From positions 64,001 to 128,000 of IMG/VR virus record IMGVR_UViG_3300032242_000818: a stretch of 64,000 nt of DNA; one strand, given 5' to 3'. The position numbers were made by a program, and so were the translations under genes. Positions 1,609 through 37,023 of the stretch are shown in pieces. The stretch is from a virus. The notes beneath the pieces are model-generated. The model was not told the DNA's origin and did no database searches. It was given only the letters and a program-made list of their open reading frames with translations. Each line of letters starts with the position of its first letter. The first letter of the stretch is position 1.

Positions 1609-2217
1609 TTAACTAAATTGCTTCTCCAAAAATGCAAGAACCTTCCCCTGCTCCTCTAAGTTAGTATTTGCAAACTCAGTAATATATGGCATAAGGTCAA
1701 AATTAGACATCAAGTTACTATATTTAGTTTCTCTTCCACGTAGGAATTGCTCGGACTGATCGGATCCACGATCTCGATATCTTTGTTCTAGGATATCCTT
1801 TGGAGCCTTTAAAAATACCACTTCTAGTTGGGTGTTCGGGAGACACATACAGAACTCTAGGAATGATTGGTTAAAAACCCTATCTCCCTCGAAAAGGATA
1901 TTACAGTTGTGGGAAGCGACCCATTCTTGAAGAGGTGGTTGAACAGCCATAGAAAGTCGATCGGTTCCAGCAAAGGTTTCGCCCTCGTCATATTTACCGA
2001 GGATGTATAGATCTCGTTCTGTATTATAAGAGGCATTTACTAATTTAGCAGGAGAAACTTCTAGCCAAGTTTTATCTTCCATAAACTTACGGAACAAAGT
2101 AGTCTTGCCAGTTCCAGGAGAACCACCAACTGCGATAATCTTTCTGGTCTTCATAGGATTAGTTACCCTTTCTACATTAATAGTGTCAACTACACCTACG
2201 TTCTCATTAAATGCCAT
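1609..2217 (-). CDS. P-loop kinase, candidate 5-hydroxymethylpyrimidine-DNA kinase
   Basis: Walker A GGSPGTGKTT, LGKY..GETFAGTDRLS and FEGDR motifs; near an amino acid:DNA transferase. Start placed at ATG 2217 after a GAGG SD. Confidence 0.7.
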   Translation of the reverse strand: MAFNENVGVVDTINVERVTNPMKTRKIIAVGGSPGTGKTTLFRKFMEDKTWLEVSPAKLVNASYNTERDLYILGKYDEGETFAGTDRLSMAVQPPLQEWVASHNCNILFEGDRVFNQSFLEFCMCLPNTQLEVVFLKAPKDILEQRYRDRGSDQSEQFLRGRETKYSNLMSNFDLMPYITEFANTNLEEQGKVLAFLEKQFS

Positions 2218-2623
2218 TTCTAATTTCCTCAATCATTTTAATCAGTTCTTCTTTACTAAAAACCCAAACACGTCCACGAAAAGAATGTGTATCAGTATTC
2301 TGATCAGTTCTCTTTGTAAAGGTCATCTTGTTAGTAACTTCTTCTGAAGCATACTTTGATAGATTACGTTTAATCTCAGTAGCATAATCTACATTACTTT
2401 CACGTAGTTTCATAAGTTCAAACTCTTGAACTCGATGTTCAACAGTCAACTCATTTAGTGAGTAACGATCTAAAATCATTTCAACTGGTGGGCGGACAGC
2501 AATAGTTGCACCAGTGGTATTCATAGTTATAGTATTACCAGTAGTATTTGAAACTGCAATATTATTCATATCTTCCCAGATAGCATTAGTAAGCCCAGTC
2601 ATTTGTCCTTTAGTCACAGCCAT
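2207..2623 (-). CDS. Hypothetical protein
   Basis: 138-aa ORF overlapping both neighbours. Confidence 0.6.
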   Translation of the reverse strand: MAVTKGQMTGLTNAIWEDMNNIAVSNTTGNTITMNTTGATIAVRPPVEMILDRYSLNELTVEHRVQEFELMKLRESNVDYATEIKRNLSKYASEEVTNKMTFTKRTDQNTDTHSFRGRVWVFSKEELIKMIEEIRNGI

Positions 2624-3639
2624 TAAAAATTCTCCAATCCAATTAAAACAGGTTCTTCATCATCAAACATCCACTCCAAGTTTTCTATTTTACCTGAACT
2701 TAGGAAAGAAGAAAACTTTTCTTTATCAATTCCTCTTTTGTGATCAAGACGAAAGTCAATAGTCTCTTCACGTGATTGCCAAAGAACATCCCAATCAATA
2801 CCATACCAACCATCGTTTTCTGCTTTAATAATCTCTTCTGCCTGACGATCTAAGTAGTAACCAAGATAACGACCATGATGTTCTCTAAAGATTTTCTTAA
2901 AAGAACATAAGCAGGTTTCCATTGTAAAGAAGTCTACTTGCGTTTCCAAATCTGGGAATCTATCTTTGGTTTCGGTGAGAATATATCTGGCTTCTGACTC
3001 AAGATTCGTATACTCGCTACTAGTGAGTTTTCTATCCATATCGTCGTGTCTGCCGAGGGCGCAAAGTAATCCATTACGATGAGAACGAGAGCCATCAAAA
3101 TCATCCAGCATGAGACTAGTAGGGCTGATGCGAATACCAGCGGTATGCTTAAGATGCTGAAGGTAAAACCAAGTGGAATAACGACCAAACTTATGCAGCC
3201 CAGACTTAACGCTTTCCCACAGATTATCAAAGTTGACTTCCTCATTATCTCCATAAAATCTTTCCAATCTTTCTCGTTGAGATCTGCCACCAATGAACTG
3301 TTGATATGAAGCAAACATGGCAGGTAGATGCCCCTTGTTCCACTTTGTATCAGTTTGGTAGCGTAATCGTTTATAGTTTGTTGCGTTCCACTGCGTAATG
3401 CGATCAACTGTTGCTAATTCAAAATCAGGAAACTCATTCATCAATACCCATGCAGTTGGTAATTGATAAGTGTTGCCGTATAGCCAAGCGAGCCAAAGAC
3501 GTTGTTCATCATTATGCTCGTAACGCTTATTGAGATAGTTCGTGCACCAAACAGCTGGGTCACAATCATCATACTTTAATGACCATGCATACCAGCGGAT
3601 GAACGCTTCTCTATTATTTTGCGGAAGTCTGTAATCCAT
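2623..3639 (-). CDS. Amino acid:DNA transferase (aGPT-Pplase2/AADT family, HhH-glycosylase-like fold)
   Basis: DCDP, FGRYSTWFYLQ, ETCLCSFKK and YLGYYLDRQ motifs typical of this family. Confidence 0.8.
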   Translation of the reverse strand: MDYRLPQNNREAFIRWYAWSLKYDDCDPAVWCTNYLNKRYEHNDEQRLWLAWLYGNTYQLPTAWVLMNEFPDFELATVDRITQWNATNYKRLRYQTDTKWNKGHLPAMFASYQQFIGGRSQRERLERFYGDNEEVNFDNLWESVKSGLHKFGRYSTWFYLQHLKHTAGIRISPTSLMLDDFDGSRSHRNGLLCALGRHDDMDRKLTSSEYTNLESEARYILTETKDRFPDLETQVDFFTMETCLCSFKKIFREHHGRYLGYYLDRQAEEIIKAENDGWYGIDWDVLWQSREETIDFRLDHKRGIDKEKFSSFLSSGKIENLEWMFDDEEPVLIGLENF

Positions 3640-3971: not shown

Positions 3972-4000
3972 ATTTTACTATAAAAATGAATGAAAGTCAA
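3972..4000 (-). promoter_or_regulatory. sigma70-type promoter
   Basis: TTGACT-17 bp-TAAAAT upstream of the ATG at 3952. Confidence 0.6.
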
Positions 4001-4532
4001 GTTGTTTTTGATTCTCTGCAAGACTGAATAAGGTTACGCAACCACCCTTACCCTTGCGATTAACAGCCTTATTGATAGTTGTATCAGAGTAATCGTAGTC
4101 AGCATCTGCATAAGTATCTCCACCTATACGAAAGATAGATAACTGACACCCACTCTTTTGAGCACCCCAAAACTTAAATCCAAGTCGTTCATAGAAACCA
4201 ACTGCCGTCTTCTCGGATGATACTCTAAAGTAAAGAGCACCATTAGATCTTGCACGCTTCAATGAATCTTCACATAATAATCTTGCAGAACCTTTGCCTC
4301 TATGTTTTGAAAATGTATGTAAGAGTTGTAAGTTTGCTACGTGAGGTTTGGTCTTTGAGATTGTAGTAATTATGGCAGCAGTTAATTCATTACCATCATA
4401 TACGCCAATACAGCAATTCCATTGATCCTGCATATCTGCTTTGGCAACAAATGTTTTGGCAAAGTTATCTTCTTTGTCTTCAGTAATTGCTGCTATAAAA
4501 TCAGCACGTGAACACTTAGACAACTTCAACAT
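3978..4532 (-). CDS. GNAT-family acyltransferase
   Basis: HRGKGSA acetyl-CoA motif and AVGFYERLGF motif. Confidence 0.85.
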   Translation of the reverse strand: MLKLSKCSRADFIAAITEDKEDNFAKTFVAKADMQDQWNCCIGVYDGNELTAAIITTISKTKPHVANLQLLHTFSKHRGKGSARLLCEDSLKRARSNGALYFRVSSEKTAVGFYERLGFKFWGAQKSGCQLSIFRIGGDTYADADYDYSDTTINKAVNRKGKGGCVTLFSLAENQKQLDFHSFL

Positions 4533-5400
4533 ATGTTCTTACTTTTTCTCCGCGATCTTCTGGATGTTTAGTTTTCTCCCAGCCAATAAACTGAAGTAGA
4601 TCCCACTGCATTGGAGGGAATGTATAATGATTGTTTGAAATTAATTCTAATACACTTTGACCATCATTCAATGCAGCATCAAGGAAGTCTTGAACGAAAC
4701 GAAAACAAGATTCAAGTTCAGTACGATCCATTGTACCACGAAATAATCTAAACTCTACAGTATCAATATGCTTCAGTGCGTACATATTAATAGCGTAGCG
4801 GAATGGGCGACCCATTGATACTCCATCTTTACCAGCAGCGTGCATCTTAATGAATGAATCAAAGTCAGTTGCTTTGTTGATAATGTTATCTGACATATAG
4901 TCAGGCATTGCTCGACCACCATCAAACTTCAAATACATCTTTGCGCCTTTGGCACCTTTCATTTGGTTATGCTCAAAGTAACCATAGACGTGCTCAATAG
5001 TATCTGTTTGGTTTTCTTTAATGTATTTTGTTAATCGTTTCAATGCTTCGATATCGTCCCTAAGACCAGGAACTCTACAATGAATATGAGTGTGAGCGGT
5101 AACACCCACAGTGGGAGGAGTGCCATTATCATCAAACATTTTATAAAGTTCAAAATATCTGTCAACCTGTTCTTCCCAAGTCTTAGTAGGTTTTGTATTA
5201 ATCTCACCACCAACTGGTGGAGTTTCTCCAAGTGGGTCAGCGCAGACATATTTGTATGGTTCTCTTAGGTTAATAATATCTCGTTCTGAGTATTCCCAAG
5301 AACCAAGATGCTCTGGAATGGAAAAAGAGCGAGGAACATCACCCCACTCTATTTCCATACCGTATGTATATTTGTCAGTTGGATATGGTTTCAGTTTCAT
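4516..5400 (-). CDS. Amidoligase (COOH-NH2 ligase, Amidoligase_2-like)
   Basis: YGMEIEW, GEINT, HTHIH, RYAIN and TVEFRLF motifs. Confidence 0.75.
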   Translation of the reverse strand: MKLKPYPTDKYTYGMEIEWGDVPRSFSIPEHLGSWEYSERDIINLREPYKYVCADPLGETPPVGGEINTKPTKTWEEQVDRYFELYKMFDDNGTPPTVGVTAHTHIHCRVPGLRDDIEALKRLTKYIKENQTDTIEHVYGYFEHNQMKGAKGAKMYLKFDGGRAMPDYMSDNIINKATDFDSFIKMHAAGKDGVSMGRPFRYAINMYALKHIDTVEFRLFRGTMDRTELESCFRFVQDFLDAALNDGQSVLELISNNHYTFPPMQWDLLQFIGWEKTKHPEDRGEKVRTYVEVV

Positions 5401-6082
5401 AATCTACTTTCTGTAAATCTGGTTTGTTAGTTTTAACAAGATTAACATTCATTGTCATATTTGAATCAAATGTCAAGTAAGTGTTCATTGGCACTTCAAC
5501 TGCTGGAATTCTAATACCTGCACGTTTAGGAATATCCGCAGTAGAAGTAATTATAACTCCATTCACTAAAGAAGTCAAATATAATGGACGCTTACCATTT
5601 CTGAAAACAACAAGATGTTTATCATTAACTGATAACTCACAAACTGCCATAGATGCATCTGGATATTCACCAAGAGCATTTGCAGAATGTAAAACAAGTT
5701 CTGAATCATTCTTTGTTTCACAAGGGTAATGAAATAACTTACCCCAATTCTCTGGGAGTTCTTGAGTGATAACTCCGTTGTGAACAATAGAATGTGTTTC
5801 GCTTGCTATCGGCTGGTTATACAATAAATCGCTAGTACTATATCTACAGTGACCAATAAGGTAAAGATTACCGTCATCATTAACCATCTCCTCTAAATTA
5901 TCTAGATGAACAAATTTATCCGCAGGAACTGATTCCTTAAATGTAGTAATCCTACCATCTTTGATATAAGATAAACCAGTTGCATGCATTCCTCTAATCT
6001 TGGACTCGAGGAACACTTTACGGATAGATTCAAAATCCTTGGCAGTAGGATTCTGAATCAAAGCACCAATAACACTACACAT
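5375..6082 (-). CDS. Class II (Ntn) glutamine amidotransferase
   Basis: N-terminal Cys2, RGMHATG, GHCRYST, NQP, HNG, NDSE and RPL motifs. Confidence 0.85.
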   Translation of the reverse strand: MCSVIGALIQNPTAKDFESIRKVFLESKIRGMHATGLSYIKDGRITTFKESVPADKFVHLDNLEEMVNDDGNLYLIGHCRYSTSDLLYNQPIASETHSIVHNGVITQELPENWGKLFHYPCETKNDSELVLHSANALGEYPDASMAVCELSVNDKHLVVFRNGKRPLYLTSLVNGVIITSTADIPKRAGIRIPAVEVPMNTYLTFDSNMTMNVNLVKTNKPDLQKVDYETETISN

Positions 6083-6678
6083 TATTTTAACTCCAAAAAT
6101 GACATTGTGTTTTCTATACCAATACTTCCTTTAAAGAATGTATTAAAAGATAATGAAATTCTATTTTCAGAAGATAGATTAGTATCTACCGAATGTGTTA
6201 GATCAGAAGGAAACAAAATTAACATACCTTTTTTTACATTTAAATTAAATTTTTTACAATTGAATTGATTAACTATTTTTGTATTATAAAATAAATTATT
6301 TTCTTTTTTCTTGTACAATTTTATGCTTTCTGGGATGTCAGGACTAATATAATAAACTCCACTGATTATACTATTATCGTGTGTATGCATATGGTGTGAT
6401 GTGTTTGGTTTATTAACATTTATCCATGATTGTGTTACTACTAATGATACATCTGTTTCTGGACATAAAACATTTTGAACATATTCATCTAACTTTTCAG
6501 AAATCTTTTCAGATATCTCAGGCATACTATTTAAAACATATGTGTTTAAACTGTAAGAATTCCCAGAATAATGATTAAACTCAGTTTCTAATGAATTAAC
6601 AAATTCTAATTCATTATCGTTTAATAATCCAACATCTTCAATATAAAGTGGAATTGGAAATAATGGCAAGAGAGTCAT
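6082..6678 (-). CDS. 2OG-Fe(II) oxygenase (TIGR02466-like)
   Basis: SWIN, HTH, SGVYY, LFPSDLTHSV and RISLSFN motifs. Confidence 0.8.
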   Translation of the reverse strand: MTLLPLFPIPLYIEDVGLLNDNELEFVNSLETEFNHYSGNSYSLNTYVLNSMPEISEKISEKLDEYVQNVLCPETDVSLVVTQSWINVNKPNTSHHMHTHDNSIISGVYYISPDIPESIKLYKKKENNLFYNTKIVNQFNCKKFNLNVKKGMLILFPSDLTHSVDTNLSSENRISLSFNTFFKGSIGIENTMSFLELK

Positions 6679-7991
6679 TAAAAGAAACTTTCTAGTGAAG
6701 AAGCATTAGATTCTGGATGATACTTATGAAGTTCTTCAGTACCAAGTTTAGATTCTACGTAATCATACCATTCTTGAGTAGTCCACATACCCTCAGAAAC
6801 ACCATTCCATAGTGGTTTCCATAAAGGATGTTCTTTATTCAATCTACGAGATTCAACAAAGTTATAACGGCATTCTTCATACTCATGAGAACCAAGATCT
6901 AGCATCTTCTCACGGAAATAACATACCAATGATACACGCTCAGAACCTTCGTCACATTTGATTTCAGTATTACCGTGCATAACTTCATGATTATTAATTA
7001 AGAGCAAGTCACCTGGACGAACATTAACTGCAACACGATACTCAGGGGCAATCAAATATCCTCCAGTATACTTACCATCATTAGATAATGTTAGCAAGTT
7101 AGATAGACCTGAATTCAAATCACCTGCATCATAATGAGCAGCAGTTCTAAATGTTTTATTGACAGTGATAGTTGTAAATGGAGTTCCAGGAACAAGGAAT
7201 CTTGGATCTAGTTTTGATGCTGCTTCCATTTGTGCAGCAAATCGTTCTGGTAAAAGATTCTTAAAACCTTCAGAAAGATTTTGAAGGAATGGATATGACA
7301 TTTGAAACTTCTCAAAATTGTCACGGGTATAAGAAGTTGCACGACCATAAGGGATACGTGGGTAACGATCAAACCAACCAGCAATACCTGAGTTAACAGC
7401 ACTACCATAGGTAGTTGTGCTAACCATCTTCATGACTTCTTCAGTAGCCTTTGCTCGTTCTTCGCGTGTAAAAGTTTTAATTGAATCAAGCCATGCTTCA
7501 AAATCAAACTTACCACGGAAACGAGAGATGACCCATACATTATTTTTACCATCACCACCAGCCATCTTCTTATCTACTTCACGTGGATATTTGGCACGAA
7601 CAGTATCGATGACATCTTCATTATCAAGAGCAGAGTTACGATTCTTAATGAGGGCACGCATCATCTCATCTTGATAGTTTGTTACCCATTCTCTTCCTTC
7701 AGTTGTGGCAAGAATGCCATCTTTGATACCAGAAGCAAGTCCTCGATTCTCTGTTCGAATAGCTGCTTCTCTAAGTCCGACATATGCTGCATCTTGCTGC
7801 TCTTTACTAAAATAATTTTTACGAAACTTCAATACGATTCGTTTTTCTGAGATTGGATCTTCACCAAATTGTGGTGGCATATAAACATCAGTATCTTCTT
7901 CAATAAGAAAATCATAATTTGATTCGTCAACAAACTTACCAAGAAGATGTTCACAATTATGTTTTTGTTCAGCTACAATTATCTTAACCAT
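6678..7991 (-). CDS. TET/JBP-family 5-methylpyrimidine dioxygenase
   Basis: GWFDRYPR, TITVN...AAHYD (HxD), MHGNT and RVSLVCYFRE (Rx5-aromatic) motifs. Confidence 0.85.
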   Translation of the reverse strand: MVKIIVAEQKHNCEHLLGKFVDESNYDFLIEEDTDVYMPPQFGEDPISEKRIVLKFRKNYFSKEQQDAAYVGLREAAIRTENRGLASGIKDGILATTEGREWVTNYQDEMMRALIKNRNSALDNEDVIDTVRAKYPREVDKKMAGGDGKNNVWVISRFRGKFDFEAWLDSIKTFTREERAKATEEVMKMVSTTTYGSAVNSGIAGWFDRYPRIPYGRATSYTRDNFEKFQMSYPFLQNLSEGFKNLLPERFAAQMEAASKLDPRFLVPGTPFTTITVNKTFRTAAHYDAGDLNSGLSNLLTLSNDGKYTGGYLIAPEYRVAVNVRPGDLLLINNHEVMHGNTEIKCDEGSERVSLVCYFREKMLDLGSHEYEECRYNFVESRRLNKEHPLWKPLWNGVSEGMWTTQEWYDYVESKLGTEELHKYHPESNASSLESFF

Positions 7992-8000
7992 ATCTTTCTC

Positions 8001-9398
8001 CTAAAACTTAAACCCACTGAAACCTTCTGCTTTCTGTCTCTTTCCAAACTCACTCTTATCAAACATAGGAACATCAACTTCCTTTGTCTGCCCAGAGTCA
8101 GATAAACCTACTTGAGCAGATGCTTCAACATCATATAACTTCATCTTCGCTCGATCAACTCCGATAACAAATCTCTTATAGAAACTAGGATCGTTGTAAC
8201 GATTCTTTAATTGTTTCACAATAATCTGATTCAGTTGTTCAAGTTCTTCATTTGAAACTAACGCAAACATCAAGTCAGCAGTGGCAGGTAATCCAAACGA
8301 TTCAGAAGTATCTTCCAAACCTGGATCGCTATTTGTAAATCCACTTCGAGTAGTTTGTGTGGCTGAAACGATTGGAACATTATATTCAACAGCCAAACCA
8401 CGCAACTCCTCAGCGATGGACTTAATATATGTATAAGAATTAATACTTCCACCTTGCTTCATACGCTGGCTTGCGCAAATGTTTAGATAGTCAATGAAGA
8501 TAATATCAGGTAAGAACTCACGCTTCAACTTCAACTCTTCAAGCAATGCTCTAAAGTGCCCAGCATGCGCACCTGCAGTTGGATATTCTTTAACGATTAA
8601 TTTACCTTGAGTCTTACTTGAGATTTTCTTAATACGATTATCAAAGATATCTTTATCAATAACTTTCAACTCATCCATGGTAAGGTTCAACAAGTTGGCA
8701 TCGATACGTTCAGCGATTCGTTCCTCAGCCATTTCCATAGTAATGTAAAGAACATTCTTACCTTGAACTAAAACACCAGCAGCCACGTGACACATAAACA
8801 AAGATTTACCAACACCAGTGCCAGCCAATACGATGTTAAGGGTTTTCTTCGATAGACCACCCTTAGTGATCTTGTTAAACATATCCAAATCGAAAGGCAA
8901 CTTCTCTTCAACCCTATGATAATATTCATAACGAGCATCACTATCTTCGATATAGTCATGACCAACATGGTTATCAAAAGAAACGGCAAGAGCATCAGAG
9001 AGTATAGAAGGAATTGAGTCCTTGGTGTGGACTTTATCTCCTCCATCGATGATTTTAATAGAGTGTAGAATCGCATTATAAACTGCCTTATCTTTACAAA
9101 ATTTCTCAGTTTGTTCCATCATCCAAGAATCATTAACTTCCTCATGAGTCATTGTTTCTACGTAAGTATTAATGTCAGAAAGTTCTTTGTCATTAATGTC
9201 AGTTCGATTACCAACTTCAATAGAAAGAATTTCTTTTGTTAATGGCTTATTATATTTGGTAAAGAAATCCACAATGATCTTAGCAATGATTGCTTCTTTT
9301 CTTTCAGAGAAATAATCAGTGCGGATAAAAGGGATTACTTTACGACAATATTCTTCATCATATACAAGATTAGTTAAAATCTTTGTTTCAATTCTCAT
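8001..9398 (-). CDS. gp41: Replicative DNA helicase
   Basis: DnaB-like; AGTGVGKS, SATQTTRSG, SESFGLPATAD. Confidence 0.97.
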   Translation of the reverse strand: MRIETKILTNLVYDEEYCRKVIPFIRTDYFSERKEAIIAKIIVDFFTKYNKPLTKEILSIEVGNRTDINDKELSDINTYVETMTHEEVNDSWMMEQTEKFCKDKAVYNAILHSIKIIDGGDKVHTKDSIPSILSDALAVSFDNHVGHDYIEDSDARYEYYHRVEEKLPFDLDMFNKITKGGLSKKTLNIVLAGTGVGKSLFMCHVAAGVLVQGKNVLYITMEMAEERIAERIDANLLNLTMDELKVIDKDIFDNRIKKISSKTQGKLIVKEYPTAGAHAGHFRALLEELKLKREFLPDIIFIDYLNICASQRMKQGGSINSYTYIKSIAEELRGLAVEYNVPIVSATQTTRSGFTNSDPGLEDTSESFGLPATADLMFALVSNEELEQLNQIIVKQLKNRYNDPSFYKRFVIGVDRAKMKLYDVEASAQVGLSDSGQTKEVDVPMFDKSEFGKRQKAEGFSGFKF

Positions 9399-9691
9399 TC
9401 AGTTCCGCCAGTGTAAGTAATGTTGTTTCTTTGTAGTTCTTCTGCCATAATAAACTGAAGAAGTTCACCAATATAGAATTCAAATTCTTCTTTGTTGTAC
9501 TCTATCTGATTGTTATGGACTTCATACTCAAAGTTAAGTTTGCAAGTGTCATCAGGTTGCTCGTCAAACTTAACTTTACCGTAAGAATATATTATACCTT
9601 CAAATGGTCCAGAAGTCAACTTTATCGCATCATGTCCTGTTTTGCGATTCTCAACTAGAATATAAGGTTTCGCAAGATGTTCACTCATCAA
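9395..9691 (-). CDS. gp40: gp40-like head vertex assembly chaperone
   Basis: Position between uvsX and gp41; GIIYSYGKV motif. Confidence 0.6.
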   Translation of the reverse strand: MMSEHLAKPYILVENRKTGHDAIKLTSGPFEGIIYSYGKVKFDEQPDDTCKLNFEYEVHNNQIEYNKEEFEFYIGELLQFIMAEELQRNNITYTGGTE

Positions 9692-10748
9692 ATTCTAGAG
9701 CCTCAAGTGCTTCATCAAGATCATCGCGCATCATTACTTCACCCTGACCAATTGAGTATTTGTTCTTAATGAAATCATAGAAGGTTTTGCTTGTGAGAAT
9801 TGATATCCAAAATTCTTTCGAGTCAGTATCTTTAACACGATATTTTTTATCTTCTACAACCCCATCTTGATCCACCTTACTGTACCAGCCGTTCGATGGC
9901 TTGACCACGTGTCCTGACTCAAGTGCAACGTCAAGTAGACCAGACCACTTAGACAAACCACCATCAAAAGTAACACTAACAGGGATTTTGGATTTTTCTT
10001 TGACATAACGACTTTTCTCCACGTTGATAATAAAGTTATAACCAACAATCTCACTACCTTCTTTCTCTTGCTGACGTCCGAGGATATAGACATTGTCTGC
10101 TGAATACATTGCACCAGTACCACCACCAACGATGGCTTTTGGAAATAAACCGATCTCCATATATGTATGGTTGACAACAACCAGTGGAATATCTTTTAAG
10201 TTCAAGTGTGGTGTTACCATACGGAACAAAGACTTCATTTGTTTTGCTCGAGTCATGTCTGCAGTAGACTTACCTTCTAGTGCGTCATCAACTTCTTTCT
10301 TAGAAGCAAGGTTACCGATTGAGTCAATAACAATAATTAAATGATCACCACGCTCTACGTTTTGTAGTTGTTGCATAATGTCAAACTTTAATTGTTCTAC
10401 ATCGGTAAGTGGAGTATGAACAACTCTGGATGTGTCGATCCCGAAAGTATCAAAGTAAGACTGAGGAGTACCGAACTCGCTATCATAAAAAAGTAAAGCA
10501 GCATCTGGATATTTGTCCAAGTAAGATTTTGCCATCAGTAAACTGAAAGCAGTTTTAAAATGTTTTGATGGACCAGCCCACATAGTAATGCCTGGAGTTA
10601 ATCCACCATCAAGGCGACCTGATAGGGCTACGTTGATAATAGGAACAGAAGTAGGAATCATATCCTTCTTCTTAAAGAACTTTGATTCAGATAGAATCGC
10701 AGAGTCTTTGATAGTTGAATTCTTTTTAATTTTGTCTAAGATGCTCAT
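9681..10748 (-). CDS. uvsX: RecA-like recombinase
   Basis: GPSKHFKT, YDSEFG, DSIGNLASKKE. Confidence 0.97.
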   Translation of the reverse strand: MSILDKIKKNSTIKDSAILSESKFFKKKDMIPTSVPIINVALSGRLDGGLTPGITMWAGPSKHFKTAFSLLMAKSYLDKYPDAALLFYDSEFGTPQSYFDTFGIDTSRVVHTPLTDVEQLKFDIMQQLQNVERGDHLIIVIDSIGNLASKKEVDDALEGKSTADMTRAKQMKSLFRMVTPHLNLKDIPLVVVNHTYMEIGLFPKAIVGGGTGAMYSADNVYILGRQQEKEGSEIVGYNFIINVEKSRYVKEKSKIPVSVTFDGGLSKWSGLLDVALESGHVVKPSNGWYSKVDQDGVVEDKKYRVKDTDSKEFWISILTSKTFYDFIKNKYSIGQGEVMMRDDLDEALEALEFDE

Positions 10749-11009: not shown

Positions 11010-11558
11010 CTATGGGTTGCTCTTTGAATGTGGAACATCAAACACAAATGTGATTCTAGTACAGTCTCCAATGTTTTCTGTTCCGTGTAGTAGTTTATTA
11101 TTGAACCAAAGTAAAGTTCCAGGTTCAACATCATAATGTTCATCACCTACAAAATATCTATATCTTCCTTGGATGGATAGATGATAACGATCTCTTGTAA
11201 GGTAATATTTTCCTTCATCAATATGGCGTCCAACATATCCTCCAACTGGAAGAGATAAGAATCCACAACGACTAAATTTTTTAAAGTTTCTTTTAAGGAA
11301 ACCAACTATCTCTGTGTGATGTTTGATTGCTTCAGTTGGTATACATATCTCACTATCGCCAACAAAGTCTTCTAATTTTTCTACGCCACCAACAACAAGC
11401 TGAAGATTGCCAACTGGTATGTCGTCATATCCTCTATCGATAAGTGATTGAGCACCTTCAATACTTTTCTGAGCCATCCAATCTTCAGGATGTTCTTTTA
11501 GTTGTTTCAATATCTTTGAAACATTAATCCCAGTTTTAATGATACGAATATTATCCAA
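11010..11558 (-). CDS. Aspartyl/asparaginyl beta-hydroxylase-like 2OG-Fe(II) oxygenase
   Basis: HID...RYHL...WFNNKLLHG...RITFVFD. Confidence 0.75.
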   Translation of the reverse strand: MDNIRIIKTGINVSKILKQLKEHPEDWMAQKSIEGAQSLIDRGYDDIPVGNLQLVVGGVEKLEDFVGDSEICIPTEAIKHHTEIVGFLKRNFKKFSRCGFLSLPVGGYVGRHIDEGKYYLTRDRYHLSIQGRYRYFVGDEHYDVEPGTLLWFNNKLLHGTENIGDCTRITFVFDVPHSKSNP

Positions 11559-14037
11559 AGAAATCCTCTAATGAACTTTGTTCTGATGTATTCCAACCCA
11601 GTGGCTCAATAACAATCTGAAGAGCATCGAGAAATACTTTCTCAAATTGTTTATCATAATCTATGTAGGAATGCAATTCAAACTCTGGTGGCAACTCTTG
11701 ACTAAACGCAATGACATCTTCTTGAAATGGATTTGGTTTACGAACATAGACAAACTTAATCTTATCACCATCACGGATTGGTTGATACTTTTTATCAAGA
11801 CCCATCTTCTTGGTGTAGTGATTAAACAATAATGCGCCACGAACATGAATCGGAGTTCCCTTAGAATAGATAGGTGAACCAGCATACTGTTTCATACCAT
11901 TTACGCCACGAGGGAATGCGATATCTTGAACAGGTAGTTTGTCAAACTCTTTACGGAAATCCATAATATAATTCTGAAGATCTGACTGATTACCTTTAAG
12001 AATAACCTCAATCGAGTCACGCAACTTATCACGAATGACTGCAGGTGTTGAAGACTTGACCATCTCAAGACCCATAACTTTAATCTTAGGTTTCGCATAT
12101 TGAACACCTTCAGAGTTATGAACATTAAGAATATATCTTTTCTTGGCAGTCCAGATACCTTTATCAGCAAGAACTTCTCGCTTCATCTGCATCTTTTGAC
12201 TATACGCATTCATATAGTCAGCGAGTTCTTGATAGCCTGTATCAATAAATGGTTGAAAGATACCCTCACAAACCTTATCCATAAACTTAATCTTTTGTTC
12301 ATCAGTTTGGCCAGCACATGCTTGCTCAACTAGAGTTTCAAGAGTAAGATAGATTGAGTCAGTATCAATCGCAACTACATAATCTTTATCCTCAGTCTTG
12401 AGAGTTTTGTTCATGAACGCATTTAACTTGTTAGCCATCCAGCGAATAGATAACTGACCAGAAGTAGTAATACCTTCAGCCATACGGATATCGAAGTATC
12501 GGAAATACTGATTACCCATGGCACCATAAGCAGAGTTCAAAGCAATCTTCATAGCCATCTGAAGATTATTCAAACGAGAAATATCTTTGAGCAAGTGTTT
12601 TTGAGACTTATCTTTCTCATACTCTTGTTGAACTTTCAGCATTTGTTTCTTAAATTTGCTTCGGTCAACATACATCTTTTCCATTAACTCAGGCATGAAC
12701 CCTTTGAACTCTTTTGTATAAGTCCAACCATTTGCAGTCAAAGCAAGATCTCGTTGCTTAACATAAGTTGTATCAATTTCTTGATTCAAAAGTTTGTCAA
12801 CAGTCACGCTAATCTTTTCAGAAGTCAAAGTCTCAGGACTGATATTATACTGCATAATCAAATGCGGATATAATGAGTTCAAATCAAATGAAGCCATCCA
12901 TTTATGAAGACCAATGATTGGATCTTTAACGTACGCACCCTCGAACTGAGCATCTTTACCAGAGTGTGACTTCGCAGGAACAACAATACCCTTCTTGCGT
13001 AAATGGTTATAGATGATTGTATCCCACATACGAACCTGCGAATAAACATCTTCGAAATTAATCTTAGCGTTATATGCCATGGTTAAATGCAGTTCAATCA
13101 AACGCATCTTATCTTCTAGTTTGTCAACCAACTCTACGTCATGAATATTATAATCTACGAATTGTTGCCAGTGATTAGTATAGAAATCCTTGAAAGATTC
13201 TCCTGGATTAACCTTCTTCTTGTCACCAAGTTCTTGTTCAGCGATATAATCAAGGCGATACGATTCTTGTTTAGAATATGTATATTTCTTATACAGTTCA
13301 AGATAATCCAACTGAGCGATACCAATAATGTCATAGTGAATCTCTTCATTACCTTTAATGAAAGTCTTGCGTTCATTGACATAACCCCATGGACTCAATT
13401 TATTAGATTCACCATCACCAAGTTCACGTTCAATCCTACGGATAAGATACGGCATGTCAAAGAAGTCAGTATTCCAACCAGTGATAACATCGGGATGACT
13501 CTTAGTCCAAAACTCTAGAAATTGAATAAGAAGATTATGTTCATCTTTACAGTTAACATAGATTACATCTTCGCGTGGATTGACGTATGCTTTGCTACCA
13601 AAAGTAATAATTCGTTTAGTAGAAAGTTCCTTAACAGTGATTAATAGGATCTCTTCATTGGCAGACTTGATATCAGGGAAACCATTCTCAGTTGAAGTCT
13701 CAATGTCAATGGTAAATACTTTAATCTGCTCCATATCCCAATTGATATCATGGGAATAATTGTCGCTGATGTATTGGTATGCGTAGTTTGAGTTTCCATA
13801 AACATCAAACCCCTGAACACCCTCATATCGTTTAATGAAGTCGCGTGTTTCTTTAATAGTCCCAGGTTGGACTTCATCAACGAATGTTCCCTCCAGTGTC
13901 TTCCACTTGGAGGGTTTCTTTGAAGTTACGTAAAGGGTAGGACTGAAGTCTAGTTTACGTTGGTAGCGTTTACCATTCTCCACACCACGAATGAAAATTC
14001 GATCTCCAATCGGATGCACCGAAGTATAAAATTCCAT
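11551..14037 (-). CDS. gp43: Family B DNA polymerase
   Basis: DIET exonuclease motif, SFDLNSLYP, KIALNSAYG, DTDS; C-terminal clamp tail SLEDFF. Confidence 0.98.
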   Translation of the reverse strand: MEFYTSVHPIGDRIFIRGVENGKRYQRKLDFSPTLYVTSKKPSKWKTLEGTFVDEVQPGTIKETRDFIKRYEGVQGFDVYGNSNYAYQYISDNYSHDINWDMEQIKVFTIDIETSTENGFPDIKSANEEILLITVKELSTKRIITFGSKAYVNPREDVIYVNCKDEHNLLIQFLEFWTKSHPDVITGWNTDFFDMPYLIRRIERELGDGESNKLSPWGYVNERKTFIKGNEEIHYDIIGIAQLDYLELYKKYTYSKQESYRLDYIAEQELGDKKKVNPGESFKDFYTNHWQQFVDYNIHDVELVDKLEDKMRLIELHLTMAYNAKINFEDVYSQVRMWDTIIYNHLRKKGIVVPAKSHSGKDAQFEGAYVKDPIIGLHKWMASFDLNSLYPHLIMQYNISPETLTSEKISVTVDKLLNQEIDTTYVKQRDLALTANGWTYTKEFKGFMPELMEKMYVDRSKFKKQMLKVQQEYEKDKSQKHLLKDISRLNNLQMAMKIALNSAYGAMGNQYFRYFDIRMAEGITTSGQLSIRWMANKLNAFMNKTLKTEDKDYVVAIDTDSIYLTLETLVEQACAGQTDEQKIKFMDKVCEGIFQPFIDTGYQELADYMNAYSQKMQMKREVLADKGIWTAKKRYILNVHNSEGVQYAKPKIKVMGLEMVKSSTPAVIRDKLRDSIEVILKGNQSDLQNYIMDFRKEFDKLPVQDIAFPRGVNGMKQYAGSPIYSKGTPIHVRGALLFNHYTKKMGLDKKYQPIRDGDKIKFVYVRKPNPFQEDVIAFSQELPPEFELHSYIDYDKQFEKVFLDALQIVIEPLGWNTSEQSSLEDFFG

Positions 14038-22524: not shown

Positions 22525-22940
22525 TTTGATTTTTTTCCTATGTTATATTTCGGTACTAGTTCCCATTGATCCTTCTCTTTGAAGGACACAACTTTGATTT
22601 GCGAAAGAGATGCTTTCTGATCCGCTTGAGAATTATTTAGGATCTTTAATAGATCCCAATCCTGAAGCAACCCAGTAATCGCATTTCTACGCTCAATATC
22701 ACCTGCAGTGATATTCGATTCCTTACCGTCCAAAGCAAAGAGTTCTTTGAAATGAACGATAAAATACCTACCTTGCTTATGCAAGATATGGCAGGATTGG
22801 TATAATTTGTTTTCTTTCCTAGACGCGATTCCAATGCGAGTCAAAGTTTCACGAACCTTTAGGAAGTTGTCAGGTTCAGGTAAAACCACTTCAAGCATGG
22901 ACTCAGGGGTCCAGTCGTAATAAATCATTTCAACAGTCAT
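22521..22940 (-). CDS. regA: Translational repressor RegA
   Basis: FLKVRETLTRIG, QSCHILHKQGRY, HFKELF. Confidence 0.97.
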   Translation of the reverse strand: MTVEMIYYDWTPESMLEVVLPEPDNFLKVRETLTRIGIASRKENKLYQSCHILHKQGRYFIVHFKELFALDGKESNITAGDIERRNAITGLLQDWDLLKILNNSQADQKASLSQIKVVSFKEKDQWELVPKYNIGKKSK

Positions 22941-23320
22941 GATTTTCCACCTTTATATAGTTTTTCTTTTATCATAATCAAGTTCTCTTCGGATAGCACT
23001 TTGAGTGCTTCATTCGCTTTCTCACTTGAATACCCATAATACTCTTTAACAAGGTCAAGCGATTCAGTAGTTTCATCCTTTTTGGACCATTTACTAAAAC
23101 GCTTTTTCCTCGAAATAATATTTAGGAAAAAGAAAAACTGCATATCCTTATCCAAACCTGGATGTTGATTCATCTGGTTGGCATAGAATACAGTGTCTGG
23201 AAAATATGATAACCCTCTATTTATAAGGAAAGGTTTATAATCCTTACCTGCTTGTGAATCCTTTTCAAATAAATTTTCTTTGGTAGTGTTTATAGCATTT
23301 AAAAAATCAAAGGGGCTCAT
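22937..23320 (-). CDS. gp62: Clamp loader small subunit
   Basis: PFLINRGLS, RKKRFSKW, YYGYS; synteny. Confidence 0.93.
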   Translation of the reverse strand: MSPFDFLNAINTTKENLFEKDSQAGKDYKPFLINRGLSYFPDTVFYANQMNQHPGLDKDMQFFFFLNIISRKKRFSKWSKKDETTESLDLVKEYYGYSSEKANEALKVLSEENLIMIKEKLYKGGKS

Positions 23321-23646: not shown

Positions 23647-24600
23647 TCACTTAAACTTACAGTTGGCCATAATCTCAGTCAACGCTGCCATAATATTTAA
23701 TTCATGATCAGCTACGAATGCTGCTTTGTATTGATAGTCAGCAAGAACCAAAACTAAAGATGGGATACTTTCTGGAACCATATATGATACTGAAGTATCA
23801 TAGAGTTCACGGAACAATGCTACTGTGTCTGAATCAGAATTCTTACCGACCCACTTACGAACATTGGTGAAATCTTTTTCTTTCATTAACTTGATTAAGT
23901 CTTTGAAAGACTCTTGACTCATGTTAACTAAAATACCTGAATCGATCTTACCAGAAACACTATAACGCTGAAGTTCATTTAGAACCCTACGATAATCTGG
24001 AAAGTGTTTAGTAATAAGTTCGGCAACTACTTTCTGATCAAACTCAATATTCTCCTGTTTAAGAATTTGAGATGCTCGTTTAAAGAATTGACCAAGAAGA
24101 ACCTGCTTATCTTTAGCATCAATCTTAAAGTCGATACAAGCGCAACGAGAATGAATCGCTTCTAAGATACGATTCTTAAAGTTACAAGTAAAGATAAAAC
24201 GACAGTTAGCTGAAAACTCTTCAATGAAACTACGCAATGCTGGTTGAGTAGAGTTGGCTTGAAGATAATCTGCCTCATCGATAATAATAATCTTTGGGGA
24301 ATCAGTCAAAGATACGGTAGAAGCAAATCCCTTAATCTTAGTTCGGAGAGTATCAATACCTGATTCCTCTGAGCCGTTGATCATAATGTAATCAGCATTA
24401 ATTTCATAACATAGTGCTTTGGCAATAGTAGTTTTACCAATACCTGCAGTTCCCGATAGTAGGAAGTGTGGTAGTTCCCCCTGTGTTACATATTGTTTAA
24501 AAGTTTCCTTCAACGCATCAGGAAGAACACAGTCATCAATTTTCTGTGGGCGATATTTCTCTACCCAAAGAAATTGGTCATCACGAAAATCAATCATCAC
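23647..24600 (-). CDS. gp44: Clamp loader ATPase subunit
   Basis: WVEKYRP, GTAGIGKTT, DEAD, SRC. Confidence 0.96.
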   Translation of the reverse strand: MMIDFRDDQFLWVEKYRPQKIDDCVLPDALKETFKQYVTQGELPHFLLSGTAGIGKTTIAKALCYEINADYIMINGSEESGIDTLRTKIKGFASTVSLTDSPKIIIIDEADYLQANSTQPALRSFIEEFSANCRFIFTCNFKNRILEAIHSRCACIDFKIDAKDKQVLLGQFFKRASQILKQENIEFDQKVVAELITKHFPDYRRVLNELQRYSVSGKIDSGILVNMSQESFKDLIKLMKEKDFTNVRKWVGKNSDSDTVALFRELYDTSVSYMVPESIPSLVLVLADYQYKAAFVADHELNIMAALTEIMANCKFK

Positions 24601-24608
24601 TTACTCCA

Positions 24609-26099
24609 TTATTTAATATAATCAAATTTAACAACAATGTTATTTTGTTCGAGCAATACCTTATGATCAATATAACTCGCTACTTGGATATCTTCCAAGT
24701 AACTATTATACTTCATTAATTCTTGCTCCACAAGTTTTTCACCATAGGTTTTTGTTAAGTTCTGCAGGATATATTCACGATCAAACATATCCATACCTGC
24801 CATAACCTGAGCATAACTATACGCATTAAACAAATTGTATTCATTCAAGAAATATGTCTTTGATGGTAAAGTCTTTTTCCAAATATCTAAATGCTCTTTA
24901 TTAAAATCAGTAACAGTCATAATCTCTGGAATTGTTTTCCAGAAATCGCTATCTTTTCTTTTACCAAGATAATGTATCTGAATGAAATCAACAATGTTAT
25001 CAAAACATTCAGTAAATCTTTTATTATATTGTTTAGTAATTTTATCTCGTTCAACTTCCCAAACTGGTAACATTCTAACGAAACCAAATGCTTGCATAAT
25101 CGAGTTTCCGATACTAGATGCTTCTAAAGGCTCAACAAATGAAGCAGATAATCCAATACTTACGCAATTGTTTATCCAAAATTGGTCAACTCTTCCAGCA
25201 TCAAACTTAATATCCTTTGCGACATTAACTTTCTCAGAATAGTGAGATTGAATCTCATCGTGGGCTTGAGTTGCGTTAATAAAATCATCACAGAAAACAT
25301 ACCCATTACCATATCTTCCCTGAGTTGGAATTCTCCAATTCCATCCAGAGGATAATGCTTTAGATAATGTATATGGTTTAAGTTCAGTAATATTTTCAGT
25401 AGGAAATGCCAAAGCATGATTCATTGGTAGGTACTTTTTGTATGATACCCACTTAGAACCTAATTTTGTTGATATGATCCTTTTGAATCCACTACTATCA
25501 ATAAAGAAATCTGCGTTATGCAAAGTTCCGCTTTCACCAACTAGAGCAGAAACATCTCCATTATCAGAAACCATAACATCAGTTACAGTTGTCTTTACAA
25601 AATTAATACTTGCTTCTTCACAAACTTTGTGTAGAAACTCGTTCAACTTGAATGTATTAAATTGATATTGATTAACTGAATTAAGACCAAATGATGTATT
25701 AATTAAATTGGTTTCATTAAGAACATCTTCAGTCTTAATGTTATTTCCAATTAAGGTTTTAATAAAAGTTAATTTCTCTGATAAATCATCAGCAGAAGTA
25801 TATTCACTATAAAATGGATCAACGATTGCATGGAAATAACTTTTTCCATCACCATTCCAATTTTCAAACTTGATACCTTTCTTTAAGGTACCATGAGTTT
25901 CTCTAACTAATCGTTGCATTGAAATGCCACAATATTCTGCGAATATTCTCCAATGCTCAGTTGAGCCTTCACCAACTCCAATAATACCGATTGAATCTGA
26001 TTCAATTACAGTAACATTACAAAGAGGAAATGACTTTTTAATTATAAGTGCTGAAACTAACCCAGCAGTTCCAGCACCGAGAACAATAATGTTTTCCAT
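24609..26099 (-). CDS. Flavin-dependent (tryptophan) halogenase family protein
   Basis: GAGTAG, GVGEGS, LKKGIKFENW, WNWRIP (WxWxIP), FVEPLEASSI. Confidence 0.85.
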   Translation of the reverse strand: MENIIVLGAGTAGLVSALIIKKSFPLCNVTVIESDSIGIIGVGEGSTEHWRIFAEYCGISMQRLVRETHGTLKKGIKFENWNGDGKSYFHAIVDPFYSEYTSADDLSEKLTFIKTLIGNNIKTEDVLNETNLINTSFGLNSVNQYQFNTFKLNEFLHKVCEEASINFVKTTVTDVMVSDNGDVSALVGESGTLHNADFFIDSSGFKRIISTKLGSKWVSYKKYLPMNHALAFPTENITELKPYTLSKALSSGWNWRIPTQGRYGNGYVFCDDFINATQAHDEIQSHYSEKVNVAKDIKFDAGRVDQFWINNCVSIGLSASFVEPLEASSIGNSIMQAFGFVRMLPVWEVERDKITKQYNKRFTECFDNIVDFIQIHYLGKRKDSDFWKTIPEIMTVTDFNKEHLDIWKKTLPSKTYFLNEYNLFNAYSYAQVMAGMDMFDREYILQNLTKTYGEKLVEQELMKYNSYLEDIQVASYIDHKVLLEQNNIVVKFDYIK

Positions 26100-26755
26100 T
26101 AAAACTCGAAAGAAGAATCTGCCTCAACTGCTACATAATAAACCAAATCACCTGCGCCTTTAAAACGAGAGATCTTCTTGCTCGAAACACTAACAGCATA
26201 ATCACCTGGGATCATCTTTAGATTTTCTACTTTCAAATTAACTTTGAATTTCTTATCGCTCGCGCCAACAGTAGAGTTATAAGAGTTACCAGTGGCGTTC
26301 TTTTTGTCGCCAACCACAACAGTCATAGTTGAACCATCACCAACGATTGATACATCAGAAGCACGCAATACTGAAGCAGTACGTTGGATCATACTGAGCA
26401 TATTTGCGCTCATGTTAAATTCAATTTCTGGATCAGGGAATGTAATTGCTTTCTGTGGTGCAGTTAGTACGCTTGCATCTGCTGCAAAGTATTTGATGCT
26501 GTTGCCACCTTGCTCGATAGTAACCCATTTGTCATTGAATGTCAATTCTGGATCTTCAAACAAAGACATCGCACCCAAGAACTCATTGAGGTCGTAGATA
26601 CCAAAGTCTGGGAAAGTTTCAGTAACAACTGCATCAGCCATTACATTCTTTTGAGCCGAGATAGTGGCTAGTTTATTGCCAGACTTCAAAAGTAAATTGC
26701 TATTAATACCAGCAAAGTTCTTGATCAAGCCTACAGTTTCTTTACTTAATTTCAT
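26099..26755 (-). CDS. gp45: Sliding clamp
   Basis: MKLSKET..KNFAGIN, FGIYDLNEFL, ENLKMIPGDY. Confidence 0.96.
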   Translation of the reverse strand: MKLSKETVGLIKNFAGINSNLLLKSGNKLATISAQKNVMADAVVTETFPDFGIYDLNEFLGAMSLFEDPELTFNDKWVTIEQGGNSIKYFAADASVLTAPQKAITFPDPEIEFNMSANMLSMIQRTASVLRASDVSIVGDGSTMTVVVGDKKNATGNSYNSTVGASDKKFKVNLKVENLKMIPGDYAVSVSSKKISRFKGAGDLVYYVAVEADSSFEF

Positions 26756-34258: not shown

Positions 34259-35313
34259 TAGATTACCTCTATGTTAATCGCCTCAGTATATAAGCCACGC
34301 ATATATGACTTAACTTTTTCTTTATCAACATCGGTTTCAATTGATTCAATATAATTAGAAAGAACAGAAACTGTATCTTCTAAGTTAATCTCTTCATTGA
34401 TTTCACCTTCTTGAAATTCAGAGAAGTCTTCCACAATTTTAATTTCGTGGCATCCTTTATTATATAACTTCTGAATGAACTTGTCAAATTTATAAAAGTC
34501 AGTTTTTTCCAAAACAACTAACTTTACATATTTGTCTTTTAAGTCTAACTGATCAAGGTCGATCGGCTCGATTTCTTTATCGGAGTACTCGAGTCTTTCG
34601 AACATTCGATAAGGATTTTCAATGAAGTCGAGTTGTCTTGTAGCGAAGTCGAACAAGTGGAATCCTCTGGGATCGTTATAATCCTGCCAAGTAAGTTCGT
34701 ACGGATTTCCCAAATAGTAAATATTGCGGTCGTTACTACGATGATGATAATGACCACTAAAGACCAAATCAAATTTGCTGAAAGTTTCTGCAGAAAATCC
34801 TTCATGACTTTCCATTCCTCTGTACATTGAGAATCCAGCAATCTCAAGATGCCCCATGCATAATGTAGAAGTGGTATTCTTTATTTCATTAATACTAGCA
34901 TCGTAGTTTTCAGGACAAATCCAAGGCAACATACAAACCTCGAAACCATTTACATTGATTGTTTTTGGTTCATCAATAACTTCGATGTTACCATATTCAG
35001 CCAATAGTAAATCAGGGGAGTTTACTTCATTAGTGTTTTTATAGTAAGTGTCGTGATTGCCAGCCAGCATATAAACACTAATACCCATACTCTCCAATTT
35101 ATCGAAGAACATTTCTTTGGCTCTTTGGAGCGAGTAGAAGTTGACATATTTGCGTCTATCAAAGGTGTCACCAAGAATAAGAACAGTATCAATCCTATGA
35201 AGTTCAAGAGCAGGAAAGAAAGTATTGTCATAAAACTTTTGGTAAAAATCTAAAAATGCAATACTATCATTACGAGCACCAAAATGCTGATCAGTGATAA
35301 TTGCTACTTTCAA
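34258..35313 (-). CDS. gp47: Mre11/SbcD-like nuclease subunit
   Basis: TDQHFG, GDTFD, GNHD, SGHYH. Confidence 0.96.
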   Translation of the reverse strand: MKVAIITDQHFGARNDSIAFLDFYQKFYDNTFFPALELHRIDTVLILGDTFDRRKYVNFYSLQRAKEMFFDKLESMGISVYMLAGNHDTYYKNTNEVNSPDLLLAEYGNIEVIDEPKTINVNGFEVCMLPWICPENYDASINEIKNTTSTLCMGHLEIAGFSMYRGMESHEGFSAETFSKFDLVFSGHYHHRSNDRNIYYLGNPYELTWQDYNDPRGFHLFDFATRQLDFIENPYRMFERLEYSDKEIEPIDLDQLDLKDKYVKLVVLEKTDFYKFDKFIQKLYNKGCHEIKIVEDFSEFQEGEINEEINLEDTVSVLSNYIESIETDVDKEKVKSYMRGLYTEAINIEVI

Positions 35314-36500: not shown

Positions 36501-37023
36501 CTATAAATGCATTCAATGTATTTTCCATTTTCTTCTTGGCTGCTTTTTCTTTCTTGCGACCAATAAAATCATCGAATGTATTATTCTGTTGCATAAACTC
36601 AAGATAAGCATTATGGAATTCACCAGTCTCATCTTGCTCTTGTAACTCAAACATTTCAAAGGGCATGTTCTGAATCAACTTACCTTTAATATAAGATTGT
36701 TTCTTTTCTTTGGCAATGCGTCTTAGAAATGCATAGTAAATAATTTGTGTAAAATAAGCAAAAGGATTACTAGACTTTGCTGGATCAAAGTTATCAATAT
36801 ACTGAATGCAGTTTTCAATTCCATCTAAAATCATATCATCACGATACGAGTAATTAATGAAGTTGGGTTTGTATGATAAGTGCGTTGCTATCTTTAAAAT
36901 ACATTCACCAATATAATTACTAATAACTGGCTTTGGTAAACCATTCTCTTCAGCATGTTTAACTTTTTCTTTCATCTCAACGATTGCTGCGAGAAAGTCT
37001 TTATTGTTTACGTAATGAGCCAT
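36385..37023 (-). CDS. gp55: Late-transcription sigma factor
   Basis: HYVNNKDF, NFINYSY, NPFAYFTQI..AFLRRI.KEKKQ. Confidence 0.96.
   Translation of the reverse strand: MAHYVNNKDFLAAIVEMKEKVKHAEENGLPKPVISNYIGECILKIATHLSYKPNFINYSYRDDMILDGIENCIQYIDNFDPAKSSNPFAYFTQIIYYAFLRRIAKEKKQSYIKGKLIQNMPFEMFELQEQDETGEFHNAYLEFMQQNNTFDDFIGRKKEKAAKKKMENTLNAFIDDENPNESITTTIHSEFEQVISSDSELPFDTPESQEKK

Follow-up and report, generated by a model that had tools for sequence, protein, structure and literature searches.

The TET/JBP dioxygenase of an uncultured T4-like phage and at least one later enzyme of its pathway probably end in the clamp-binding peptide of the DNA polymerase

Introduction

How do enzymes that hypermodify phage DNA after replication reach that DNA when their substrate is plain thymine, and how do they act fast enough and in the right order? 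We address this question for a TET/JBP-type DNA dioxygenase encoded in a 64,000-nucleotide stretch of viral DNA (positions 64,001 to 128,000 of IMG/VR record IMGVR_UViG_3300032242_000818), hereafter the window. It is part of a complete (100 %) genome of 164.7 kb with direct terminal repeats, which belongs to an uncultured T4-like myovirus, has 37 % G+C and carries nearly all genes on its minus strand. An earlier sequence-only reading noticed that the dioxygenase and the DNA polymerase gp43 end in similar peptides, and proposed that the modifying enzymes ride the sliding clamp gp45 at the phage fork, which would restrict modification to phage DNA and solve the choice between self and non-self. 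Here we compare these C-termini within the genome and across related phages. The dioxygenase and at least one later enzyme of its pathway probably end in the polymerase's clamp peptide, which suggests that masking of the phage DNA is carried out by clamp-bound enzymes, on newly copied DNA.

Several elements of this picture are already established, namely clamp-binding C-terminal peptides, clamp 'tool-belts' and a gp45-binding DNA-modifying enzyme, the α-glucosyltransferase (α-GT) of T4. The acidic-hydrophobic C-termini of T4 gp43 and gp55 are experimentally defined, interchangeable gp45-binding epitopes (PMC2988020), and phage thymine dioxygenases with a kinase, a glutamine amidotransferase (GATase) and an amino acid:DNA transferase (aaDT) have been published (PMC13229309, PMC8989533). 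Our literature search returned no mention of gp45 or of a clamp motif on TET/JBP enzymes, aaDT or the TET-associated glycosyltransferase (TAGT).

Results

The dioxygenase and the polymerase end in the same kind of peptide

The dioxygenase ends in ...HPESNASSLESFF, with TCT TCA CTA GAA AGT TTC TTT as its last codons before the TAA stop (positions 6678-6701 of the window with the stop), and gp43 ends in ...SEQSSLEDFFG. The translations bear out all four C-termini as first read: ASSLESFF for the dioxygenase, QSSLEDFFG for gp43, IGLENF for aaDT and QLDFHSFL for a GNAT acetyltransferase. SSLESFF belongs to the motif class [ST]-L-[DE]-x-Φ-[FY], placed at the C-terminus or within about 4 residues of it. 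The known T4 peptides are ASLDFLFG, at the end of gp43, and SLDFLYEAND, at the end of gp55; the gp43 tail of the window occupies the same position as that of T4 gp43.

Of the 215 C-termini compared with the gp43 tail by BLOSUM62, that of the dioxygenase scores highest (32, with 21 for the runner-up). In the ranking of all 23,220 tail pairs this pair is third, behind two that look like paralogues. A position-specific scoring matrix (PSSM) trained solely on the gp43 tails of related phages was scanned over 50,717 proteome positions. It gave 23.9 bits to gp43, 22.1 bits to the dioxygenase and 6.6 bits to the third-ranked C-terminus, and only two of the 50,717 positions reached 12 bits, which are the C-termini of gp43 and of the dioxygenase. 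The Ser-Leu-Glu region is encoded by AGT TCA TTA GAG in gp43 and TCT TCA CTA GAA in the dioxygenase; because the S, L and E codons differ, the tail is not a recent DNA duplication of the gp43 tail. Other C-termini with an L..FF-like appearance (baseplate hub MQSFF, a head-tail adaptor-like protein PLEFFLG, thioredoxin LLEFLKV and a coiled-coil protein LLDKFFK) were considered as clamp clients and rejected, as they have low PSSM scores and are unlikely by function.

We describe the peptide as resembling the PCNA-interacting-peptide (PIP) box because its second aromatic pair is FF (gp43 QSSLEDFF). The PIP-box consensus Qxx[LIM]xx[FY][FY] is matched in full by QSSLEDFF of gp43, and ASSLESFF of the dioxygenase has the L..FF core without the Gln. 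The clamp gp45 is a PCNA-like trimer and not PCNA.

Both genes are coupled to their downstream neighbours. The stop codon of the dioxygenase gene overlaps the ATG of the next gene, a 2-oxoglutarate (2OG) oxygenase (TAATG, 6678-6682, minus strand), and the gp43 codons TTA GAG GAT, in the region 11551-11577, hold a GAGGA that shortly precedes the TTG start codon of the overlapping gene at 11010-11558. The latter, on the minus strand and translationally coupled to gp43, encodes a cupin or Asp-Arg β-hydroxylase-like protein (PHROG 32420).

The tail is conserved, predicted to be disordered and preceded by a variable linker

In all of the 120 closest homologues of the dioxygenase (67-100 % identity), [LI]-x-x-F-[FL] lies no more than two residues from the C-terminus. 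When each 50 %-identity cluster is represented by one protein, 21 of the 28 highest-ranking matches have the tail; these are full-length proteins of ~440 aa and reach down to ~39 % identity. Of the next 122, mostly ~300-aa domain-only proteins, 2 have it. Lack of conservation among homologues had been named beforehand as grounds for giving up the clamp proposal; of the 185 TET/JBP homologues in the loci surveyed below, 174 retain L-x-x-Φ-F.

The conservation is confined to the motif. In an alignment of 52 sequences the linker (residues 427-432) has an entropy of 2.2-3.2 bits, and L433, F436 and F437 have 0.60, 0.32 and 0.16 bits. At the nucleotide level, 114 distinct 3' ends use all six Leu codons, and the terminal Phe is TTC in 60 and TTT in 54. 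In an AlphaFold2 (AF2) model, residues 433-437 alone have a predicted local distance difference test score (pLDDT) below 50. The motif is therefore a free peptide outside the fold, following a divergent linker of ~4 residues.

The tail occurs in phages that encode gp43 and gp45

The same phage encodes a cognate gp45 and the clamp loader gp44/gp62, and its gp45 can be aligned over the full length with T4 gp45 (1CZD, 3e-24) and RB69 gp45 (1B77/1B8H, 7e-22). The sequence-only reading had called for a comparison of the tail between phages with gp45 and other phages. Our gp43-encoding comparison set consisted of three isolates, in which gp45 was also checked, and the metagenomic genomes G001, G002, G004 and G005 (Table 1). 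The tail accompanies gp43 in 8/8 gp43-encoding phages (degenerate in Cr30), as against 0/3 without gp45: it was found in none of S-CBWM1 (which also lacks gp43), HTVC112P and P12024L, which are complete phages with a TET/JBP gene and no gp45. No gp43 was present on the contigs of two representatives with LF or MF tails (P0134 and P0132), which are just 2-3.5 kb long, and a scan of relatives of P0134 was empty.

Some co-variation between the tails is apparent, since the LF ending is found on both gp43 and the dioxygenase in G001 and in Cr30, and the gp43 ending of Cr30 (DLSSLFD) resembles that of its TAGT-like protein (DLSKLF).

Table 1. C-terminal peptides of gp43 and of the TET/JBP enzyme in gp43-encoding phages
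Phage or genome	gp43	TET/JBP
DLP_6	TLDSFFA	TLGDFFV
C48C1	TLEDFFG	SLEEFFV
Cr30	DLSSLFD	GATLF (degenerate)
G001	TLESLFGE	SLEHLFG
G005	EKISTLEDFFG	EKISTLEDLFE
G002, G004	FF type	MF or LF type

Other DNA-modifying enzymes carry the tail

A census of open reading frames (ORFs) of at least 100 aa in ~200 fetched loci, using the terminal motif [LI][EDNSAGQ]x[FLMI][FWY]x0-2, recovered gp43 (44/44), TET/JBP (174/185), aaDT (49/100) and TAGT (8/9), against a background of 2 matches among ~1,300 ORFs from the remaining families that have a homologue in the genome studied. The motif-bearing ORFs that lack such a homologue comprised a GT1 glycosyltransferase family (32 loci), Dam-type D12 methylases (in C48C1 and locus L054), one GNAT, one HNH protein and two unknowns. 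When the motif was relaxed and each distinct tail was counted once, the counts were 22/22 for gp43, 66/71 for TET/JBP, 30/38 for aaDT, 11/23 for GNAT and 10/628 for all others.

The endings of aaDT and GNAT had been regarded as weaker matches. For aaDT the tail is real (30/38 versus 10/628): the family ends in GLExΦΦ after a variable linker, GLENF of this phage being one residue shorter, and G334, L335 and E336 have entropies of 0.5-0.6 bits after a linker of 2.2-3.2 bits. The AF2 model of aaDT shows the tail as coil (pLDDT ~77). For GNAT the match holds within this clade, as an added extension, and does not hold beyond it; relatives in the clade end in V-x-L-[DE]-G-F or VDLNSFL, and GNATs of the sister clade end ~15 residues earlier with no motif. 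TAGT of DLP_6 ends in DLSSFFN. The candidate kinase of the pathway ends in FLEKQFS; we rejected this as a fourth clamp tail, as the register differs and the relaxed motif occurs in just 3 of 36 distinct kinase tails.

The GT1-family glycosyltransferase (449 aa, ending in VDLESLFG; L026:12124-13470 and 31 further loci) adjoins the TET/JBP gene in place of the aaDT branch in one marine subclade. The D12 methylases are N6-adenine methyltransferases with polymerase-type tails, ESTLDAFFG in C48C1 (L005:3995-4876), where the gene lies immediately after gp43, and SSNLDDFF in L054 (7197-7982).

The late sigma factor gp55 of this phage has the motif TLNAFI, followed by DDEN, in its C-terminal region. 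Its ORF extends ~38 residues beyond TLNAFIDDEN and overlaps the listed start of a 396-aa ORF (35310-36500, minus strand) by 115 nt; the true start of the latter probably lies further downstream. The helicase gp41 ends in F-x-G-F-K-F, which is near-invariant in 77 related loci after variable residues, a pattern that suggests another conserved C-terminal docking peptide.

Identity of the enzyme and its gene neighbourhood

The assignment to the TET/JBP (5mYOX) family is firm. The Tet_JBP match scores 87.1 bits (cut-off 34.9), the iron triad H286, D288 and H339 is invariant, and R352 and S354 are at least 90 % conserved (52 sequences). The AF2 model has a mean pLDDT of 89.5, and Foldseek places CcTet, human TET2 and Naegleria NgTet1 closest (E 4e-11 to 2e-10); the protein has the double-stranded β-helix fold of TET2 and NgTet1, the HxD...H triad and the 2OG-binding Arg. 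GenBank labels the TET/JBP genes of DLP_6, Cr30, S-CBWM1 and HTVC112P as 'SNF2 DNA repair protein' or 'DnaJ chaperone', which look like misannotations.

The enzyme is probably a thymine hydroxylase acting in DNA. Thymine is favoured as the substrate because the complete genome has no C5-cytosine methyltransferase and the kinase, aaDT and GATase neighbours resemble thymine hypermodification clusters (PMC13229309). The 100 %-complete genome also has no match to ParB_N (PF02195); we therefore place the enzyme with the ParB-less phage thymine dioxygenases of PMC13229309.

The dioxygenase gene heads a cluster of co-oriented, translationally coupled genes (Table 2). The replication genes of the window likewise include regA; no gp33 was identified in this genome. 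Between gp44 and gp45 (24609-26099, minus strand) sits a 496-aa tryptophan-halogenase-like flavoenzyme (PHROG 2928, 5.5e-104).

Table 2. Positions of the features discussed, in the 64,000-nucleotide window
Feature	Position	Strand	Evidence or remark
P-loop nucleotide kinase 3, candidate 5-hydroxymethyldeoxyuridine (5-hmdU) DNA kinase of the pathway	1609-2232	-	Pfam Ploopntkinase3 1.3e-6
aaDT (amino acid:DNA transferase)	2623-3639	-	Pfam ADDT 3.5e-24; tail GLENF at 2626-2640
GNAT acetyltransferase	3978-4532	-	Pfam Acetyltransf_10/1; C-terminal extension QLDFHSFL at 3981-4004
Amidoligase-like protein	4516-5400	-	motif in 0/20 distinct tails
Ntn glutamine amidotransferase (GATase)	5375-6082	-	motif in 0/41 distinct tails
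2OG-Fe(II) oxygenase, cluster member	6082-6678	-	family assignment; no clamp-type tail
TET/JBP (5mYOX) Fe(II)/2OG DNA dioxygenase, 437 aa	6678-7991	-	Pfam Tet_JBP (PF12851) 9.6e-25
SSLESFF, proposed gp45-docking motif of TET/JBP	6681-6701	-	stop TAA at 6678-6680
gp41 helicase	8001-9398	-	
UvsX	9681-10748		
gp43 family-B DNA polymerase	11551-14037	-	DNA_pol_B and PHROG 262; tail SSLEDFFG at 11554-11577
gp62 clamp-loader small subunit	22937-23320	-	PHROG 225 6e-43
gp44 clamp-loader large subunit	23647-24600	-	PHROG 168 5e-124
gp45 sliding clamp, proposed tail receptor	26099-26755	-	PHROG 223 8e-70; Pfam gp45-slide_C
gp55 late sigma factor	36385-37023	-	PHROG 234 2e-60
gp55 motif TLNAFI, then DDEN	36502-36519	-	resembles T4 gp55 epitope SLDFLYEAND

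Discussion

The core of the earlier proposal, that the dioxygenase carries the polymerase's clamp-binding peptide, is strongly supported by the comparative evidence: the peptide is conserved after a variable linker, its codons turn over synonymously, it is predicted to be disordered, it is present only in phages with gp43 and gp45, and several unrelated DNA-modifying enzymes share it. We consider it likely that the tail is a gp45-docking peptide which tethers thymine hypermodification to the clamp, and we infer that it would bind gp45, that thymine is the likely substrate, that modification would be coupled to the fork and that host DNA may be spared. In such a scheme gp44/62 would load gp45 onto replicating phage DNA at the ends of primers, and the clamp would slide along the duplex; any primer end or nick can serve as a loading site. 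The tail would dock at the gp45 site that gp43 uses, and the tethered dioxygenase would scan fresh phage duplex and convert thymine to 5-hydroxymethyluracil. With their weaker versions of the peptide, aaDT and, in this clade, GNAT could use other pockets of the trimer or later clamps, in which case one 'tool-belt' would serve several steps of thymine hypermodification. The same handle may be used by glycosyltransferases and Dam in other phages.

The closest parallels are the gp43, gp55 and gp33 epitopes of T4 and RB69, which are likewise acidic-hydrophobic peptides at the extreme C-terminus after a variable linker, and the window encodes homologous gp45, gp44 and gp62. The carriers differ, being the polymerase and transcription factors in T4 and RB69 and DNA base-modifying enzymes, with predicted docking, in the phage studied here. 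T4 α-GT is a further close precedent and is described as binding gp45 and co-purifying with it (Sommer 2004, as cited in PMC13216743 and PMC6024577). It too is a post-replicative DNA-modifying enzyme of a T4-type phage on the clamp, with modification right behind the fork as the proposed purpose. Unlike the dioxygenase, α-GT ends in ...KEQFDIITK and has no gp43-like peptide; here the motif is the polymerase's own and is found on several enzymes of one pathway. Among eukaryotes, PIP-box clients of PCNA such as DNMT1 offer a further analogy, in which a peptide of the Qxx[LIM]xx[FY][FY] type recruits a DNA-modifying enzyme to newly replicated DNA. In that case the motif is usually internal and serves maintenance methylation, whereas in the phage it is strictly C-terminal and would serve de novo hypermodification.

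The ParB-dependent thymine dioxygenases (5mYOX clade C1, PMC13229309) belong to the same family, have the same partner genes (P-loop kinase, GATase and aaDT), carry a C-terminal extension and depend on a DNA-riding partner protein. The ParB-linked enzymes are ~300 aa long and often end in ...RxxG[DTE]PL[YFW]; in contrast, the enzyme of the window has 437 aa, an extra N-terminal region, the gp43 motif and no ParB_N gene in its genome. Among the ~300-aa TET/JBP proteins in our data the end is often ...EELERAKxRxxG[DTE]PL[YFW], and both of the two examined (P0170 and P0235; L207 and L208) adjoin a ParB_N gene. The ~300-aa enzyme of HTVC112P (L209:1162-2070) is also adjacent to ParB and ends in ...EEELNRIKHAR without the PL[YFW] motif. 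The PL[YFW]-type tail probably corresponds to the 'C-terminal extension' described for ParB-dependent 5mYOX enzymes and may be their partner-docking peptide; that the C-terminus is a plug matched to a DNA-riding partner is speculation.

Other explanations of the tail have to be weighed. Because the motif is common to gp43, the comparative data show that the dioxygenase has the same partner as gp43 and not which partner this is, and T4 gp43 contacts several replisome proteins; the tail could thus dock on another one that recognises the gp43 C-terminus (the clamp loader, gp32 or a phage-specific scaffold) and not on gp45. We regard this as improbable, since gp55 of this phage has a related motif and gp45 is the sole replication-protein partner common to gp55 and gp43, and since in T4 and RB69 it is gp45 that is bound through this exact C-terminal peptide, which has been crystallised in complex with the clamp (PMC2988020; 1B8H). 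The tail could also serve the enzyme itself, by helping it to fold or stay soluble, by plugging it in autoinhibition, by mediating oligomerisation or by acting as a degradation signal at the C-terminus, and would then resemble gp43 through convergence. The linker is short here, and in the ParB-dependent 5mYOX enzymes even a ParB-independent chimera requires the C-terminal extension to be active (PMC13229309). Such a role is nevertheless unlikely, as the peptide is found on at least six unrelated folds (TET, aaDT, TAGT, GT1, Dam and GNAT), only in phages with gp43 and gp45, and the tail is the model's sole low-confidence stretch.

A constraint on the nucleotides would explain the peptide as a by-product, if the last codons hold the Shine-Dalgarno sequence of the coupled downstream gene. 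Both the GAGGA before the TTG start in gp43 and the TAATG overlap of the dioxygenase gene would suit this explanation, but the invariant L, F and F vary synonymously, the motif persists on enzymes whose downstream genes differ, and T4 gp43 has a homologous peptide; we think it very improbable. Seven residues are a short match, and chance would still be a barely credible explanation for two hits among 50,717 positions, both of them C-terminal, and for a pattern that recurs in lineages 40-57 % identical to each other.

Some observations weigh against gp45 docking. From the last confident helix (426-429) to the motif the linker has ~3-4 residues, compared with 17 in T4 gp55, and the ribosome-binding region of the coupled downstream gene extends into the tail codons, a possible extra constraint on the E/D codons. 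Some tails are degenerate or missing despite gp43, namely GATLF in Cr30, SLDEPF in L054-L058 and VSLWS in L184, L185 and L200. Strict co-variation of the dioxygenase and gp43 tails had to be rejected, as G002, G004 and G005 have LF or MF on the former and FF on the latter. In T4, promoter swaps of α-GT indicate that the share of modification is set mainly by promoter strength and that binding to gp45 matters little for it (PMC13216743). The putative DNA kinase of the pathway has no clamp-type tail.

ParB proteins are CTP-gated DNA clamps, and a bolder, more tentative possibility is that gp45 stands in ParB's place as the required activator or processivity factor of the ParB-less phage thymine dioxygenases. 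The tail would then be an exchangeable plug that chooses the DNA-riding partner, and whole pathways (TET, aaDT or glycosyltransferases, GNAT and Dam) would assemble on the trimer behind the fork. Expressed on their own in E. coli, ParB-less clade C1/D enzymes showed no activity (PMC8256090, PMC13229309), which, if this were true, would be because the gp45 activator is missing.

A polymerase-type clamp tail on the first and on several later enzymes offers a concrete and cheaply testable answer to the targeting problem of post-replicative hypermodification. It suggests why some phage thymine dioxygenases are silent in heterologous assays, which bears on their use as tools, and it would add DNA chemistry to replication and late transcription as phage processes that use the clamp as a 'tool-belt'.

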